Of a DNA stretch of 40,207 bases, positions 2,947 through 12,805 are shown piece by piece. The stretch lies in the sequence record SRR22947727_2090, one strand, 5' to 3'. The stretch's first letter is position 1; each line of letters starts with the position of its first letter. A program made the position numbers and the translations under genes. The notes below the pieces were generated by a model. That model was given only the letters and a program-made list of their open reading frames with translations. It searched no databases and was not told where the DNA came from.

Positions 2947-3271
2947 TCTAAAATACCTAACAAAAAGTTCGGACTTACGTAAGATCCTTTTTAACCAACA
3001 GAATACTAAAAGATCGTTTAGCATCTTATTTGTATCACCTTGGGACTCGTACTGCGAGACTCTGGTGGAGAGGTTGGAGTCCGAGTTTGGAAGTAAGGAT
3101 CGTGGGGAGCCCCTCTACATTGTAGATAGCTTCTTAATGCCTGATGCCTTCTCTCATTACAACACCCAGAAGGTCCCTCAGCTAGTACAGATTAGGAAGG
3201 ATTATACTTCTGTAGAAGACTACCTTCCTACCGTGTATCGGAAGCTTAGGTTTAAAGGGAGTCCCGTTTAG
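2939..3271 (+). CDS. Thioredoxin-fold protein with degenerate active site
   Basis: ILFVSPWDSYC (WCxxC position with the first Cys replaced) and a KVPQL cis-Pro-like segment. Confidence 0.55.
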   Translation: MYNLKYLTKSSDLRKILFNQQNTKRSFSILFVSPWDSYCETLVERLESEFGSKDRGEPLYIVDSFLMPDAFSHYNTQKVPQLVQIRKDYTSVEDYLPTVYRKLRFKGSPV

Positions 3272-3590
3272 TCTCGAACAAGTCTTCAATCTTTTGATTG
3301 TACTTCTTTTCCTTAGTATACATCAACTTTAGGTTATTTACAATAATTGTTGTAAAGTAGTTAAACGCTGTGCCTTTAGTTGGTTTAAAGTTCTTTATGA
3401 TCTTTAGTACTAAGGAAAAGCATTCTTGTTTTGCATCATCCTGATCAACCTTAAACTTAAATGAGGTTAGGATCTTGCCTATAAGGAGATCGAAAATCTT
3501 TACTAGTTCTTCTTCGTGAGAATCGGGATCCTCTTTGTATAATAGAATGAGTTCCTCGAACTCCTCGTTGTTGATGTAATATTTACCCAT
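3252..3590 (-). CDS. Compact late-transcription sigma factor, T4 gp55-like
   Basis: YYINNEEF start, DDAKQECF, and NFKPTKGTAFNYFTTII resembling the gp55 region-2 motif F.YFT.I. Confidence 0.65.
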   Translation of the reverse strand: MGKYYINNEEFEELILLYKEDPDSHEEELVKIFDLLIGKILTSFKFKVDQDDAKQECFSLVLKIIKNFKPTKGTAFNYFTTIIVNNLKLMYTKEKKYNQKIEDLFETKRDSL

Positions 3591-3603: not shown

Positions 3604-4620
3604 ATGTATAAGCCCCTAGAAGATCTTTATTCTGATCTTGAGGTAGAGTCTGGCAACCCAAAATGTAAGGGTTGTAGTATTCTTAAAAAGAATAAACCTT
3701 GCCACTCCGTAATGGATTACGAGGAGATGGATCAGTGTGATATTCTGTTTGTAACAGACTCTTTAAGTTTTAGGTTTGGGGCAACTCACGGTGCTGACCT
3801 AAAAGCTACTAATCTTCTCAACGAAATGATGAGCGATGAGTTCCTTATTACTGGAGCAGTTAAATGTCCTTCAGTTAAAGAGGAAGATATGTCTACATCT
3901 GACAGGAAGATCTGTAGACAGCACATTTTGGATACCGTAGAAAGGGTACAACCAAAACTTATCTTCGCTTGTGGAAACCTAGCACTTAAACAACTGACTA
4001 AACAAAGTGGAATCCAGAAGAAGCGTGGAGCAGCTATTGAGTTAGAATTAGAGAGTGGGTTTAAGACTGTGGTTGTGCCGATCTTTCATCCTTATGCTGT
4101 TCTGAAAGAGCCTAAGAATGAGATGTTGTTCAATATTGATATACAGAACGCATACAATATCTACATTCTAGGTAAAAAAGGTACTAGTAACTTTGACTAC
4201 AGTGTGCTTATGTCTTTGGAGGATATAGCTTCTTTTATTGATAGGGTAGATAAAACGGTAGCGTGGGCAGTGGATACTGAGACGGAAGGTTTGGACTTCT
4301 TGAGACATGATATCACAACGATCTCAATCACTACTCCAGACGAGACTTGTGTTATCCCATTCAAGCATAAAGATAGTCCTTTCTTGGGGGAAATGGATAA
4401 GTTAGTAGCTATGATTAACCTGCTGTTCTCATACGACAATAGAAAGGTCTTTCATAACGTCAAATTCGATTTGCGTATGCTCTTGAGGCAAGGAGTACGA
4501 ATCCCTATCAAAACCTTATTCTGTACTCAGATGTTCCATCACCTATGGAATGAAAACCTACCCAAAAGCTTGATGGATATTATTAAGATCCACTTCCCTG
4601 AAGAACTTGACAAACTATAA
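3604..4620 (+). CDS. Split family A DNA polymerase part 1: UDG family-4-like domain plus 3'-5' exonuclease motifs I-II
   Basis: CKGC, AVKCP, CRQHI, IFACGNLA, PIFHP (UDG-like); AVDTETEGLD (Exo I); FHNVKFDLRML (Exo II). Confidence 0.85.
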   Translation: MYKPLEDLYSDLEVESGNPKCKGCSILKKNKPCHSVMDYEEMDQCDILFVTDSLSFRFGATHGADLKATNLLNEMMSDEFLITGAVKCPSVKEEDMSTSDRKICRQHILDTVERVQPKLIFACGNLALKQLTKQSGIQKKRGAAIELELESGFKTVVVPIFHPYAVLKEPKNEMLFNIDIQNAYNIYILGKKGTSNFDYSVLMSLEDIASFIDRVDKTVAWAVDTETEGLDFLRHDITTISITTPDETCVIPFKHKDSPFLGEMDKLVAMINLLFSYDNRKVFHNVKFDLRMLLRQGVRIPIKTLFCTQMFHHLWNENLPKSLMDIIKIHFPEELDKL

Positions 4621-4623
4621 GAC

Positions 4624-5100
4624 ATGTTAACCGTATCAAATCCTCAAAATACAGACTGGAAGAATATGCCCTTAGGGGATCTTTGTGAAGGAAATGCAAC
4701 AGACACGTACTTCACTTTGAAGATTTACGATCTTCTTATGGATCAGATGGAAGATACCCCTGTAATGAAGCTAGTAGATCGAGTTTTAATGAGAACTATT
4801 AGTAGGTTTGCTGAGGTTGAGTATTTAGGCTTAGATGTGGATACTTCTAAGCTTAGTATGATATCAGACTCTATTGATGACGCTAACATGGAGATTGAAG
4901 ATCGTATTTACTCTTTGGAAGCTGTTAAGCCTAAAGATGCTCTAACTGGTCACGATCTATTAGAGATCTTATACACAAGGGAGGGTGCCTTAGAGTTGTA
5001 CCCAGCAGGACATACAGAGAAGGACGCACCTTCAACAGCGGAGCCTGTATTAACTAAAATGTTATCCCAAATAAACGAAGAACTAGAGAAGAGATCCTAA
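4624..5100 (+). CDS. Split family A DNA polymerase part 2: Exo III region and first half of thumb
   Basis: GNATDTYFTLKIY (Exo III-like); FAEVEYLGLDVD (ME..G..vD equivalent); PSTAEPVL (ST.eevL thumb motif). Confidence 0.8.
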   Translation: MLTVSNPQNTDWKNMPLGDLCEGNATDTYFTLKIYDLLMDQMEDTPVMKLVDRVLMRTISRFAEVEYLGLDVDTSKLSMISDSIDDANMEIEDRIYSLEAVKPKDALTGHDLLEILYTREGALELYPAGHTEKDAPSTAEPVLTKMLSQINEELEKRS

Positions 5101-6260
5101 TGGTTTCAAAGTACGAAAAAAAAGCTAGAGACGAGAAGATTAGTCGCGCTGTCATAGGTAATAAGACTACTAAGTCTTTGAAGGAATCTAAAGCTTTTAT
5201 TACTGACCTACTAGAGCTTAGAAAGTCTACTAAACTTAAGACAACATACGTTACAGGTACACGGAGAGCTATTGAGAACAATGGTTATGACAAAGTATAC
5301 TTTGATTTCCGATTCGATGGAACGGTGACGGGAAGATTGTCTTGTGGTGGAGCTACTAAAGGAAGGAAGAACTCTGATAAAATGGGAGTTTCTTTCCACA
5401 CTCTACCTCAAACAGACGAGGATTACGAGACTGACTTAGTTAGCAGAAACATTAGAAGTCAGTTTGTAGCTCCCTCTGGTTGGTCTTTTTTGGCGGGAGA
5501 CTATAGCCAGATGGAGCTACGAGTTTTGGCTGTCCTAGCTAATGAGGGGTCAATGAAGAAAGCTTTCTTAGAAGGTAGAGATATTCACACATCTACTGCC
5601 TCATTAATCTTTGGTGTTTCTGAGAATCAGGTAACAAAAAAGCAAAGAAATATCGCTAAGACTGTTAACTTCCTTATTGTATATGGTGGGGGTGAGTACA
5701 ACTTGTCTGAGACTGCTGGAATTACTATGGTTGAGGCTGAGAATGTTTTCGTAAAATATAGAGAGAACTTCCCCAAGGTGTTCTCTTATATGGAGATTAT
5801 TAAGAAGCGAGTTATGCAGGACGAGTATGTCACCACATTATTTGGACGTAGAAGACATTTACCTAATGTTAGGTCTAACAACAAGAAAGTGGTAGCACAG
5901 GCTGTAAGGCAAGCTAACAACTTCACAGTACAGTCTCCTGCGTCTGACGTAATGCTTTGCGCTATCGATGGTGTATGTGAAGATATTGAAAACAAATCTC
6001 TACTTTCTAGAGTAGTCGCTACTGTTCACGACAGTGTTGAGATAATCTCACCATTTTCTACTACTATTCAAACACTTGAGCTAATGAGGAAACAGATGAT
6101 GAATCCTCCCGCATTAGAAGATTTAGGTATTGAGTTCGATGTACCTCTAGTTGTAGACCTAGAGGTTGGTGCTAGCTTCGGAGATCTTATGGATGTAGAG
6201 TTTGATGATTCTGGAAAAGTATCAAATGAGGAAGAAATTATGGAGTATCTTGGAGCATGA
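5100..6260 (+). CDS. Split family A DNA polymerase part 3: catalytic domain
   Basis: LELRKSTKLKTTYV, GTVTGRLS; motif A DYSQMELR; motif B RNIAKTVNFLIVYG; TLFGRRR; NFTVQSPASD; motif C VHDS. Confidence 0.92.
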   Translation: MVSKYEKKARDEKISRAVIGNKTTKSLKESKAFITDLLELRKSTKLKTTYVTGTRRAIENNGYDKVYFDFRFDGTVTGRLSCGGATKGRKNSDKMGVSFHTLPQTDEDYETDLVSRNIRSQFVAPSGWSFLAGDYSQMELRVLAVLANEGSMKKAFLEGRDIHTSTASLIFGVSENQVTKKQRNIAKTVNFLIVYGGGEYNLSETAGITMVEAENVFVKYRENFPKVFSYMEIIKKRVMQDEYVTTLFGRRRHLPNVRSNNKKVVAQAVRQANNFTVQSPASDVMLCAIDGVCEDIENKSLLSRVVATVHDSVEIISPFSTTIQTLELMRKQMMNPPALEDLGIEFDVPLVVDLEVGASFGDLMDVEFDDSGKVSNEEEIMEYLGA

Positions 6261-6421
6261 AAAAGTTTAGAGTTACAAAAAAGTATGTGTCTTACCGAGA
6301 CTCTATCGTAGAAGCAGAAAGCTTAGAGGATGCTTGGGAGGATGAACTAGTTCCCATTGGGGAAGAGGTAGTCACGGATGAGTGGTCTGAGTATGTTACT
6401 AAAGTAGAGGAGATTGAATAG
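6257..6421 (+). CDS. Small acidic hypothetical protein (54 aa; not in ORF track)
   Basis: ATGA overlap with the polymerase stop; MKKFRVTKKYVSYRDSIVEAESLEDAWE... Confidence 0.6.
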   Translation: MKKFRVTKKYVSYRDSIVEAESLEDAWEDELVPIGEEVVTDEWSEYVTKVEEIE

Positions 6422-6615
6422 TGTCAAGTTGGATGTGTACTTTTGGTAGTTGTGTAGAGTGTGACTATGAAATAGTAGTCACACAAGGTAGGCACTTACC
6501 TGATGGAAAAGATTACAGATGGTACTGCTCTAATCTAGAGTGTACAAACCATACAAACGTGGAAGAAACTTATGATGACGAGTACCCTACGTTCCTTACG
6601 AGAGAAGACAAATGA
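6421..6615 (+). CDS. Small Cys-containing protein (possible zinc ribbon)
   Basis: CVEC...CSNLEC; stop overlaps the thyX start. Confidence 0.55.
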   Translation: MSSWMCTFGSCVECDYEIVVTQGRHLPDGKDYRWYCSNLECTNHTNVEETYDDEYPTFLTREDK

Positions 6616-7268
6616 TTAAATGTTTAGATAAAGGGTATGTTCAATATATCGAACATATGGGATCAGACCTATCCGTAGTTAACGCTGCTAGATGCTCATT
6701 CGGCAAGGTGAAAACTGAGTTCGATGAAAAGGATGAGAAGCTTATCAAGTACCTAGCTAGAGAAAAGCACATGCTACCTTTTAGACATCCTCAGATCTCA
6801 CTTAGAGTTAAAATGCCAATTTTTGTGGCAAGACAACTTATGAAGCATACCGTAGGTATGTCTTGTTCAGAAGTATCTCGTAGATATATTTCAACTGATC
6901 CTGAGTTTTATGAACCCGAAGTTTGGCGTAAGAAACCAGATGCTAGTATCAAGCAAGGATCAGGAGATAATTTTGATGAATACCAACAAGGTAACATTAA
7001 TACGTTCTTAGAAGAAAGAGACGAGCCTTTAAATACTTATAAGTATCTTCTTGATAAAGGAGTAGCACCAGAGCAAGCTAGAATGGTTTTACCTCAATCC
7101 ATGTATACTACAGTATATTGGACAGGATCTTTACTAAGCTGGAATCATCTTTACAAACAGCGTACAGATAGCCACGCTCAACAAGAGACACAAGAATACG
7201 GTAGAGCTATTGGAACTATCATGGAAGAACTATATCCAGTAAGTTGGTCAGCTATTCTAACAACATGA
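6612..7268 (+). CDS. thyX: FAD-dependent thymidylate synthase
   Basis: GSDLSVVNAARCSF, HMLPFRH, PIFVARQLMKH...SEVSRRY, EQARMVLPQS, HAQQE. Confidence 0.95.
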   Translation: MIKCLDKGYVQYIEHMGSDLSVVNAARCSFGKVKTEFDEKDEKLIKYLAREKHMLPFRHPQISLRVKMPIFVARQLMKHTVGMSCSEVSRRYISTDPEFYEPEVWRKKPDASIKQGSGDNFDEYQQGNINTFLEERDEPLNTYKYLLDKGVAPEQARMVLPQSMYTTVYWTGSLLSWNHLYKQRTDSHAQQETQEYGRAIGTIMEELYPVSWSAILTT

Positions 7269-12350: not shown

Positions 12351-12805
12351 TGGAGTATAAATGGAAATGTTGGGATTGTGATATCACCGTAACAAAAGAC
12401 TATGCTATGGGAAAGTCTCCTATAAGAACTAGATGTACTGAATGTAATAAACTTATTGAGAAAGACCTTAGTACTGTAACTTTTCATATGAAAGGTGATT
12501 GTCATACTAATGTTGCAAGAGGTAAGAAATTCATTAAGGAAGGTCTGAATAAACAAGAAGGAGATGCACTGCTAAACAGAGCTATTGCTTCCACAAAAGA
12601 GGCTCTAGCGGATGACGGTCAGAAATACAAGTCTTACAATATCGATTACGAAAAACTAGCAAAGCACGGCAAAGCTACTAAGCTTACCCCAGAGCAGACA
12701 AATAAAAAGCGAGAGCTTACCAAGAAACGGACCCAAGAGGTCTATGATAATGCTGAGAAACAAGGCGAACAACTTAACGTAAACAGAAAAAAAGATCAAC
12801 ACTAA
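12350..12805 (+). CDS. Zinc-ribbon protein (FmdB-like N-terminus) with basic tail
   Basis: YKWKCWDC...CTECNK...VTFHMKG. Confidence 0.65.
   Translation: MEYKWKCWDCDITVTKDYAMGKSPIRTRCTECNKLIEKDLSTVTFHMKGDCHTNVARGKKFIKEGLNKQEGDALLNRAIASTKEALADDGQKYKSYNIDYEKLAKHGKATKLTPEQTNKKRELTKKRTQEVYDNAEKQGEQLNVNRKKDQH

Follow-up and report, generated by a model that had tools for sequence, protein, structure and literature searches.

Split replication enzymes are known from several groups of phages. Among family A DNA polymerases (PolAs), a two-gene split between exonuclease and polymerase (exo/pol) in T7-like cyanophages of the S-SBP1 type was described in 2023 as the first (PMC10201439). PolAs that carry a UDG (uracil-DNA glycosylase) domain, as in SPO1, other Herelleviridae and N4-like phages, are described as single chains (PMC10201439). 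Intein-less splits are reported for the family B polymerase (PolB) gp43 of T4-like Aeromonas phages and for NrdA of phage Aeh1 (PMC2677866), and the two pieces of the PhiKZ PolB, DNAP-N and DNAP-C, form a 1:1 complex (10.64898/2026.09.30.755723). Two-gene DNA polymerases are also reported for the OM43 phages MEP401 and MEP402 (PMC10580990) and for an uncultured cyanophage lineage (10.1101/325100). Here we describe a UDG-PolA that is divided over three adjoining genes, located at positions 3604-6260 of a 40,207 nt stretch of DNA from sequence record SRR22947727_2090. This whole stretch is referred to as the window, the genes as parts 1, 2 and 3, and the two divisions as breaks 1 and 2.

A polymerase encoded by three genes

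We consider it likely that the three genes are translated separately and encode one replicative UDG-like/3'-5' exonuclease/family A polymerase, working as a non-covalent three-subunit enzyme. Coordinates of the genes, junctions and motifs are given in Table 1. The open reading frame (ORF) calls agree exactly with the three abutting ORFs that an earlier, sequence-only reading of the window had reported. The PHROG family phrog_17 (DNA polymerase) matched the genes colinearly, with profile positions 543-783 on part 1, 793-889 on part 2 and 927-1242 on part 3.

In part 3, the Pfam domain DNA_pol_A (PF00476) covers aa 19-361, corresponding to profile positions 60-380 of 381 (258 bits, cut-off 34.3, E 1.7e-76). 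The Klenow and Bst alignments show that positions 1-59 of the same profile correspond to part 2. Bst and Taq Pol I match part 3 at E ~1e-43, and aa 33-362 align with Bst chain 274-578. Part 2 gave no match to Pfam domains. Profile positions 9-147 of part 2 align with Klenow chain 160-294 (E 8e-9), and aa 40-148 with chain 167-269 of the Bst large fragment. Part 1 contains the Pfam domain DNA_pol_A_exo1 (PF01612) at aa 206-316 (43.7 bits, cut-off 23.6), of which only profile positions 8-113 of 173 are covered, and its aa 198-316 align with Klenow chain 6-127. The preceding region of part 1 is UDG-like, and the family 4 UDGs 1l9g, 1vk2 and 4zbx of the PDB match aa 67-185.

The Klenow alignments put Exo I and Exo II on part 1 and the Exo III aspartate on part 2. 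They also place break 1 at about Pol I residues 472-475, downstream of Exo II and upstream of Exo III. Break 2 is located in the thumb, after about Klenow residue 617, as judged from the Bst alignments of parts 2 and 3.

Table 1. Parts, junctions and motifs of the three-gene polymerase; positions are those of the window.
Feature	Position	Strand	Description
Part 1	3604-4620	+	338 aa; family-4-UDG-like domain and N-terminal two thirds of the 3'-5' exonuclease; ends FPEELDKL-stop
UDG-like domain	3823-4119	+	Part 1 aa 74-172; Pfam PF03167, 34.3 bits, cut-off 24.3, E 2.9e-8
Exo I	4273-4281	+	D224-T-E226; both carboxylates invariant (37/37); aligned with the Klenow Exo I region
Exo II	4456-4470	+	N285-V-K-F-D289; N285 in 36/37, D289 in 37/37
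Junction 1	4618-4626	+	TAA GAC ATG; part 1 stop, one codon, part 2 start, same frame
Part 2	4624-5100	+	158 aa; Exo III end of the exonuclease, exo-pol connection and first thumb half; MLT...INEELEKRS
Exo III region	4690-4704	+	G23-N-A-T-D27; Asp kept, Gly at the Tyr position
Junction 2	5098-5102	+	TAATG; part 2 stop and part 3 start share 1 base; part 3 in -1 frame
Part 3	5100-6260	+	386 aa; conserved basic N-terminal extension, remaining thumb, then the palm and fingers, which carry motifs A, B and C
Part 3 N-terminal extension	5100-5195	+	aa 1-32; the Bst alignment begins only at aa 33
Motif A	5499-5522	+	D134-Y-S-Q-M-E-L-R141; D134, Y135, M138, E139 and R141 invariant
Motif B	5646-5687	+	R183...K187...F191...Y195-G196; all five invariant
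Motif C	6027-6041	+	H310-D311-S312-V-E314; H310, D311, S312 and E314 invariant (37 sequences)

Conservation of the breaks

The split is a real and conserved design, neither an error nor a pseudogene. The nearest virus record (G001) matched the entire 2657-nt stretch at 98% identity. Both junctions and all three ORFs are kept in the viral contigs L002 and L003 (98% nucleotide identity) and L004 (~80%); in L004 the codon GAC at junction 1 is GAT and the layout is otherwise as in the window. Between the window and L004, synonymous and non-synonymous codon differences number 127 and 39 in part 1, 57 and 16 in part 2, and 150 and 52 in part 3. This excess of synonymous differences in all three parts points to purifying selection.

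Most of the sequencing runs that contain the polymerase stretch are marine metagenomes. Of 23 listed runs, 19 contain some or all of it, and 13 contain half or more of its sampled words. Contigs of three DNA runs, from three studies, bridge the junctions with substitutions only and no indels: one contig of run X1 spans junction 1, and single contigs of runs X2 and X3 span both. It should be noted that this check used the assembled contigs of four runs, not raw reads, and that the best-matching run may be the source sample. A 149-nt contig from an oligo-dT RNA library also spans junction 2 without indels.

A total of 43 standalone homologues of part 2 of similar length (139-162 aa) were found, down to 43% identity and on contigs of up to 129 kb. 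A search for part 2 among longer proteins gave 434 candidates, none of them significant, which is a weak negative. Fused and two-gene forms did turn up in the profile search described below. With the part 2 alignment as query, 122 matches were confirmed among viral contigs. The best 80 of these, reaching down to about 40% identity, were examined by matching their ORFs to the window proteins. Parts 1 and 2 are separate ORFs in all 72 loci that hold both, and the same is true for parts 2 and 3 (72/72). In the other eight loci at each break the neighbouring part is missing, mostly through a contig end; one locus (L044) lacks part 1 in ~2 kb upstream. These are counts of contigs and not of independent lineages, because near-identical pairs are present and L005-L007 are repeats of L002-L004.

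Each piece is conserved at both of its ends across the relatives, as seen in 37-sequence alignments, to which the residue counts below refer. At the C-terminus of part 1, F331, L335 and L338 are invariant or nearly so, in a pattern ...F..EL(E/D).L. Part 2 starts with an invariant M1 and L2 and a T3 present in 36/37, and ends in the pattern ...EEL..R. The sequence-only reading had argued against sequencing error. This stands, given the bridged junctions in the contigs of three DNA runs and the recurrence of the layout at 72/72 loci for each break.

A proposed composite proofreading site

Exonucleases of the DEDD(y) type have a DxE motif (Exo I) and an Nx3D motif (Exo II), and both are present in part 1. 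We did not find a canonical Exo III motif, Yx3D, on the same chain: the aspartate is D27 of part 2, and the position of the tyrosine is taken by Gly23. In the Klenow alignment, G23 pairs with Y497 and D27 with D501, and G23, N24 and D27 are invariant (37/37). The sequence-only reading had the proofreading motifs running in order over the ORFs, which is correct for their order and their assignment to the parts, with the correction that Exo III is not a canonical YxxxD. New relative to that reading are the glycine in Exo III, the greater age of break 1 and the gene insertions at break 1 in relatives. Its suggestion of a proofreading site built from two polypeptides agrees with the distribution of the four DEDD carboxylates, which is D224, E226 and D289 on part 1 and D27 on part 2. 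All four are invariant (37/37). Judged by these residues, the exonuclease site would still bind metal and is probably active, with an altered chemistry.

In the UDG-like region of part 1, C21, C24, C88, C104, H162 and P163 are invariant. We take the motifs of family 4 UDGs to be GEAPG (motif A), HP... (motif B) and four Fe-S cysteines; on this assumption, motif A of the family is not kept in part 1, where the position reads L-F-(L/V)-(S/T)-D-S. The spacing C-x2-C ... C-x15-C of C21, C24, C88 and C104 (window 3664-3675, 3865-3867 and 3913-3915) presumably fits the [4Fe-4S] pattern of the same family. Part 3 has the residues expected of a family A polymerase, that is the aspartate of motif A, the R/K/F/Y-G of motif B and the H-D of motif C. 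Motif C reads HDS (H-D-S-x-E), whereas it is HDE in Bst and Taq.

The split could be real and the function changed, such that the exonuclease is weak or inactive with parts 1 and 2 mainly serving as a scaffold, or such that the parts form sub-complexes rather than an obligate trimer. Glycine occupies the Exo III tyrosine position in all proteins that start at break 1 (109/109; motif G-N-A-x-D), whereas tyrosine is kept in 15 of the 16 proteins in which the part 2 region is internal, P0163 being the exception. A residue that compensates for the change from tyrosine to glycine in Exo III was not identified. The apparent lack of motif A in the UDG-like domain fits a changed function as well. Four invariant carboxylates are, on the other hand, unexpected for a dead site. 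In addition, half of the thumb is missing from part 3, and the domain in part 1 is short of its last helices, so that the pieces are unlikely to fold or act alone. On balance we find a change of function unlikely.

Recoding, introns and inteins

The sequence context is CTA TAA GAC ATG at junction 1, with a spacer of 3 nt, and TCC TAATG at junction 2. Stop-start spacings of this kind had been read as common in this genome, and the ORF list of the window does contain further 1-nt overlaps at 12805, 19165, 22180, 26239 and 33941.

The junctions vary among the 72 loci. Junction 1 is a 1-nt overlap of the TAATG type in 28 loci, a 3-nt spacer in 3 (the small clade of the window), directly abutting in 1 and filled by an insert of 150-2400 bp in 40. 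Junction 2 is an 8-nt overlap in 49 loci, with a GTG start and part 3 in the +1 frame. The remaining loci have overlaps of 4 nt (13 loci), 1 nt (4), 23 nt (3) and 29 nt (2), and one has a 585-bp insert.

Programmed recoding would yield one full-length chain if the stop at junction 1 were read through and the ribosome shifted to the -1 frame at junction 2. In the window and three close relatives, a single sense codon separates the stop from the ATG at junction 1, and the two genes share one frame. A run of eight A at ~5113-5120, five codons into part 3, could serve a frameshift, but this run is missing in L004. Recoding at junction 1 is also difficult to reconcile with the 28 loci in which the genes overlap by 1 nt and with the 40 that have inserted genes, often on the opposite strand. 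Part 3 is in the +1 frame at 49 loci and in the -1 frame at 17. Furthermore, the M-L-T start of part 2 and the start codon of part 3 (ATG or GTG, followed by conserved residues) are at fixed positions in the alignments. Because the frame relations vary, no single readthrough or frameshift fits all loci, and separate initiation does. As a mechanism shared by these phages, recoding is unlikely from this comparison, and we give it very little weight as the explanation of the layout.

A single chain could also be restored by a group I intron, by trans-splicing or by split inteins. Group I introns with homing endonucleases do occur in polA genes of the related Herelleviridae (SPO1 gene 31), and split-intein "fractured genes" are reported from marine metagenomes (PMC2677866). 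A fractured gene in the sense of Dassa et al. (2009) has an N- and a C-intein half at its break, usually separated by a free-standing gene for a homing endonuclease. The junctions of 3 nt and -1 nt leave no space for an intron, and differ in this from an intron-interrupted polA of the SPO1 type. Compared with Klenow, the end of part 1 and the start of part 2 are within a few residues of each other, leaving no space for intein halves and no spare residues at break 1. The surplus at break 2, 10 + 32 residues, consists of conserved predicted helices and is unlike intein halves, and neither break has the features of a fractured gene. In the loci of 18 relatives carrying inserts, we found no Rfam family at gathering score, and none of 18 inserted ORFs compared with Pfam encodes a homing-endonuclease domain. 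One of these ORFs encodes a GT2 glycosyltransferase (L078) and one a 2OG-Fe(II) oxygenase (L080), and 16 had no Pfam match. The earlier statement that inteins and introns are lacking is in line with these results, and we regard a rejoined chain as highly improbable. We also considered the SPO1 intron site as the position of the breaks and rejected it; the SPO1 intron is located just before motif A, ~130 residues downstream of break 2.

A sequencing or assembly error or a decaying pseudogene, for which nothing speaks beyond the odd layout, has next to no probability and is refuted by the comparative data, as the breaks recur in independent assemblies and many contigs, the piece ends are conserved and synonymous changes dominate.

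Break 2 and the thumb

About 38-42 residues at break 2 have no counterpart in Bst, namely the part 2 tail of 10 residues and aa 1-32 of part 3. The ~30-aa basic extension that had been noticed at the start of part 3 is thus found again as a stretch that is conserved and absent from Bst. Across the 37 sequences V18, K22 and L27 of this extension are invariant and R8, K12 and I14 nearly so. An AlphaFold2 model of part 3 (mean pLDDT 79) has a helix at 4-20 followed by a helix at 24-61, at pLDDT 55-73.

We measured the insertion between two anchors, a P-S motif in part 2 and a K..TY motif in part 3, since MAFFT misplaced the part 2 tail in the alignment. The number of residues between the anchors is 28 and 34 in two fused relatives, 34-42 in six two-gene forms, 76 in the two-gene form P0133 and 67 (21 + 46) in the window. 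The AlphaFold2 model of P0133 has a mean pLDDT of 87.3 and a TM of ~0.71 to Bst Pol I. It contains a helix at 149-168, a loop at 169-182 (pLDDT 65-72), a helix at 183-197 and a long helix at 200-237. The helices at 4-20 and 24-61 in the part 3 model match this helix order.

From the helix order and the anchors we infer that break 2 cuts the loop of an older helical insertion in the thumb. The tails would then be halves of this insertion rather than handles acquired after the split, because P0133 has an insertion of similar length in one chain. The tails that had been proposed as added docking handles are conserved across relatives but, given the unbroken 76 residues of P0133, do not look like additions made after the split. 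The tails may still hold the chains together.

Order of the two breaks

A profile of part 2 was compared with 1.84 billion representative proteins, which gave 872 matches at E <= 0.001; among the best 150, which were listed, the Exo III region was aligned in 128. Of these, 99 are standalone proteins of <=200 aa starting at break 1, and 8 are proteins of 480-563 aa that run from break 1 into the polymerase. Two more start at break 1, are of intermediate length and apparently truncated. The part 2 region is internal in 16, and 3 are of other types.

The 8 proteins of 480-563 aa represent a two-gene form; their first residues, at break 1, are (M/V)L(T/S), and the chain extends into the polymerase domain. 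In L089, a part-1-like gene of 330 aa is followed by TAA AAC ATG and a part 2+3 gene of 525 aa. In L088, a part-1-like gene of 332 aa is followed by an ORF of 92 aa and a part 2+3 gene of 563 aa. Both loci, the two inspected out of the eight two-gene forms, have the synteny of the window, and L088 shares with it the flanking minus-strand sigma-like gene and thyX. Single-gene forms are found in more distant relatives: Rhodobacter phage RcKickapoo (1247 aa), MW202777 (825 aa), P0156 (809 aa) and P0170. The RcKickapoo polymerase (L085, 1499-5242) has ~280 extra residues between its part-2-like and motif-A regions, perhaps an intein or an inserted domain.

For the polymerase part, we made a quick maximum-likelihood tree from 37 three-gene, 8 two-gene and 13 fused forms. 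The fused forms were chosen by us, and P0161, P0169, P0181, P0182 and P0186 are among those left out. All 45 split forms are in one clade (SH-aLRT 100), within which the three-gene forms, 37 in number, make up one group (SH-aLRT 80). Only two changes of state are required by the tree, and the window and L007 form the deepest three-gene branch. The tree is provisional because of long branches and the quick search. On this tree the simplest history is a fused polymerase that would first have acquired break 1 and then break 2.

Proposed enzyme

Based on these observations, we suggest a three-subunit polymerase of the following kind. In brief, the carboxylates of Exo I and Exo II would come from part 1, together with the UDG-like domain. 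Part 2 would bring in the aspartate of Exo III along with the exo-pol connection and one thumb half, and part 3 would complete the thumb and provide palm and fingers. The metal site of the exonuclease would be formed by parts 1 and 2 together, and the thumb by parts 2 and 3. The tight junctions, a 3-nt spacer and a 1-nt overlap, probably couple translation and would give similar amounts of the parts. In a clade of uncultured marine phages, the gene would have undergone fission twice to give this arrangement, first at break 1, in the loop between Exo II and Exo III, and later at break 2, in the loop of the lineage-specific helical insertion of the thumb. The genes and their breakpoints, the conservation and selection of these, the sequence of the two breaks and the lack of space for inteins or introns are established by the comparisons above. 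We infer the assembly into a heterotrimer from the fold and from the purifying selection on all three parts; activity and translational coupling of the parts are likewise deduced.

Several points weigh against the three-subunit enzyme, for which chain binding and activity are presumed from the comparisons. A complex prediction of parts 1 and 3 with part 2 as partner scored 0.86, against 0.74 with part 3 replaced as control, which speaks neither for nor against binding. Full exonuclease and polymerase competence are not to be assumed, because all split forms have glycine in Exo III and motif C reads HDS. In this phage, where junction 1 is in frame, low-level readthrough to a fusion of parts 1 and 2 may occur. 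The evidence for expression is the single RNA contig of 149 nt, which may be DNA carry-over. In P0163, a database fragment of 141 aa, the end of part 1 (...ELENSL) runs into MLTV... without a stop, and this is either a re-fused lineage or an artefact of assembly or gene calling.

More speculatively, and with rather low confidence, we consider the enzyme as an obligate trimer, with a proofreading centre that would exist only when parts 1 and 2 meet and an Exo III tyrosine lost at about the time when fission occurred. Subunit supply, or a partner that can be exchanged, could then determine how strongly the enzyme proofreads. The basic helix of part 3 could contact DNA or a partner, roughly at the place of the thioredoxin-binding loop of T7 polymerase, and the gap between parts 1 and 2 could be a preferred landing site for cassettes within an essential gene.

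Inserted and neighbouring genes

Among the relatives, break 1 is an insertion hot spot, with other genes in the 40 loci mentioned above. Many of the inserts (L008, L012, L016, L019, L024, L053, L062, L063 and L082) encode minus-strand, very basic, low-complexity proteins of variable length and without Pfam match. These share an N-terminal motif, ~N-x-Y-E/D-R-I-G-E-S-I-W-N-T-Y-R, which is sometimes repeated. Further inserts at break 1 are small membrane-like ORFs. The gaps of 486 nt and 542 nt at junction 1 contain no long ORF by our filter and no Rfam family that would mark an intron, and several of them seem to contain a minus-strand, glycine-rich gene that was clipped by the coordinate filter. 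The only insert at break 2 among the 72 loci is that of L080 (3990-4574), with no ORF of >=50 aa by the filter.

The 40-kb window is a block of replication and nucleotide metabolism genes, encoding RusA, ThyX, SbcD, SbcC, ribonucleotide reductase (RNR), a DnaB-like helicase, single-stranded DNA-binding protein (SSB), a UvsX-like recombinase and sugar-modifying enzymes. No structural genes were found among the 26 ORFs of the window that were scanned. The helicase and the polymerase are most similar to their counterparts in Herelleviridae, at 31-35% identity.

Directly upstream of part 1 is a divergent gene on the minus strand (3252-3590; 112 aa). It has a weak match to Sigma70_r2, at E 2.7e-4 and below the cut-off, and may encode a phage sigma-like factor. 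A similar minus-strand gene is found upstream of part 1 in L088 and L089.

Downstream of the polymerase genes, the window has an insertion of ~355 bp at 6257-6615, directly after the first thyX codons, when compared with L004 and with L001, which is 98% identical in the polymerase genes. The insertion contains an ORF at 6257-6421 that reuses the old thyX start, ATGAAAAAGTTT, and an ORF at 6421-6615 with a Phage_zn_bind domain (PF23895). The thyX gene downstream (6612-7268) has a new start. This is a fresh case in this phage group of a small gene cassette that has landed at a gene boundary.

Comparison with known split polymerases

We did not find a published PolA in three genes, nor a break inside the exonuclease site, in the openly accessible full-text literature. 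The three-gene layout is so far undescribed among split phage polymerases. The nearest phage records by tblastn are polymerases of Herelleviridae and actinophages, at 29-34% identity. Among 50,697 phage records, a set from which records very near the window may be missing, none had more than 34% identity to any part; blastn with the region gave no match, and tblastn with part 2 gave none.

If the proposed enzyme is correct, abundant marine phages of a wide clade have maintained an essential replicase as three pieces, with cuts through the catalytic centre of the exonuclease and through the thumb. It would offer a natural test case for the tolerance of the polymerase fold to fission, for the assembly of a proofreading site in trans and for stepwise gene fission, with one-, two- and three-gene forms all available for comparison. 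In gene calling, and in surveys of viral plankton that use polA as a marker, such polymerases will be overlooked or mis-sized.

The S-SBP1-type PolA and the PhiKZ PolB are precedents for a non-covalent split. The polymerase described here resembles the S-SBP1-type PolA in belonging to family A, in its adjacent genes without intein or intron, in its presumed origin by gene fission and in the presumed non-covalent reassembly. The S-SBP1 type, as described, has one break at the exo/pol boundary and belongs to a T7-like cluster, whereas the breaks in the window are inside the exonuclease and inside the thumb of a UDG-PolA. Its exo/pol split is thus not found here, with breaks at about Klenow 472-475 and after ~617 and with UDG-PolAs as the nearest polymerases. 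Compared with the S-SBP1 type, the history of the split in the window appears older and two-step.

The likeness to the split gp43, NrdA and PhiKZ PolB is that an essential replication enzyme is made in non-covalent pieces, in some cases with genes in between, as in 40 of the 72 relatives here. As described, these splits differ in affecting other enzyme families, in having two pieces and in the homing endonucleases encoded between the pieces, of which none was found among 18 inserted ORFs here. MEP401 has a small ORF without assigned function between its PolA pieces, as is seen in L088, and both cases concern marine phages. The splits of the OM43 phages and the cyanophage lineage are in two pieces. 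Because tblastn with part 1, part 2, P0009 and P0149 gave nothing above 31%, these polymerases are either not close relatives or missing from the 50,697 records.

The closest likeness in domain order is to the UDG-PolAs of SPO1, other Herelleviridae and N4-like phages, which, in the cited description, have the same order of family-4-UDG-like domain, 3'-5' exonuclease and PolA. The replication module of SPO1 also has a gene set similar to that of the window, with a DnaB-like helicase, SbcC, SbcD and RusA. These enzymes differ in being single chains, and the group I intron in the SPO1 gene sits elsewhere than the breaks described here.

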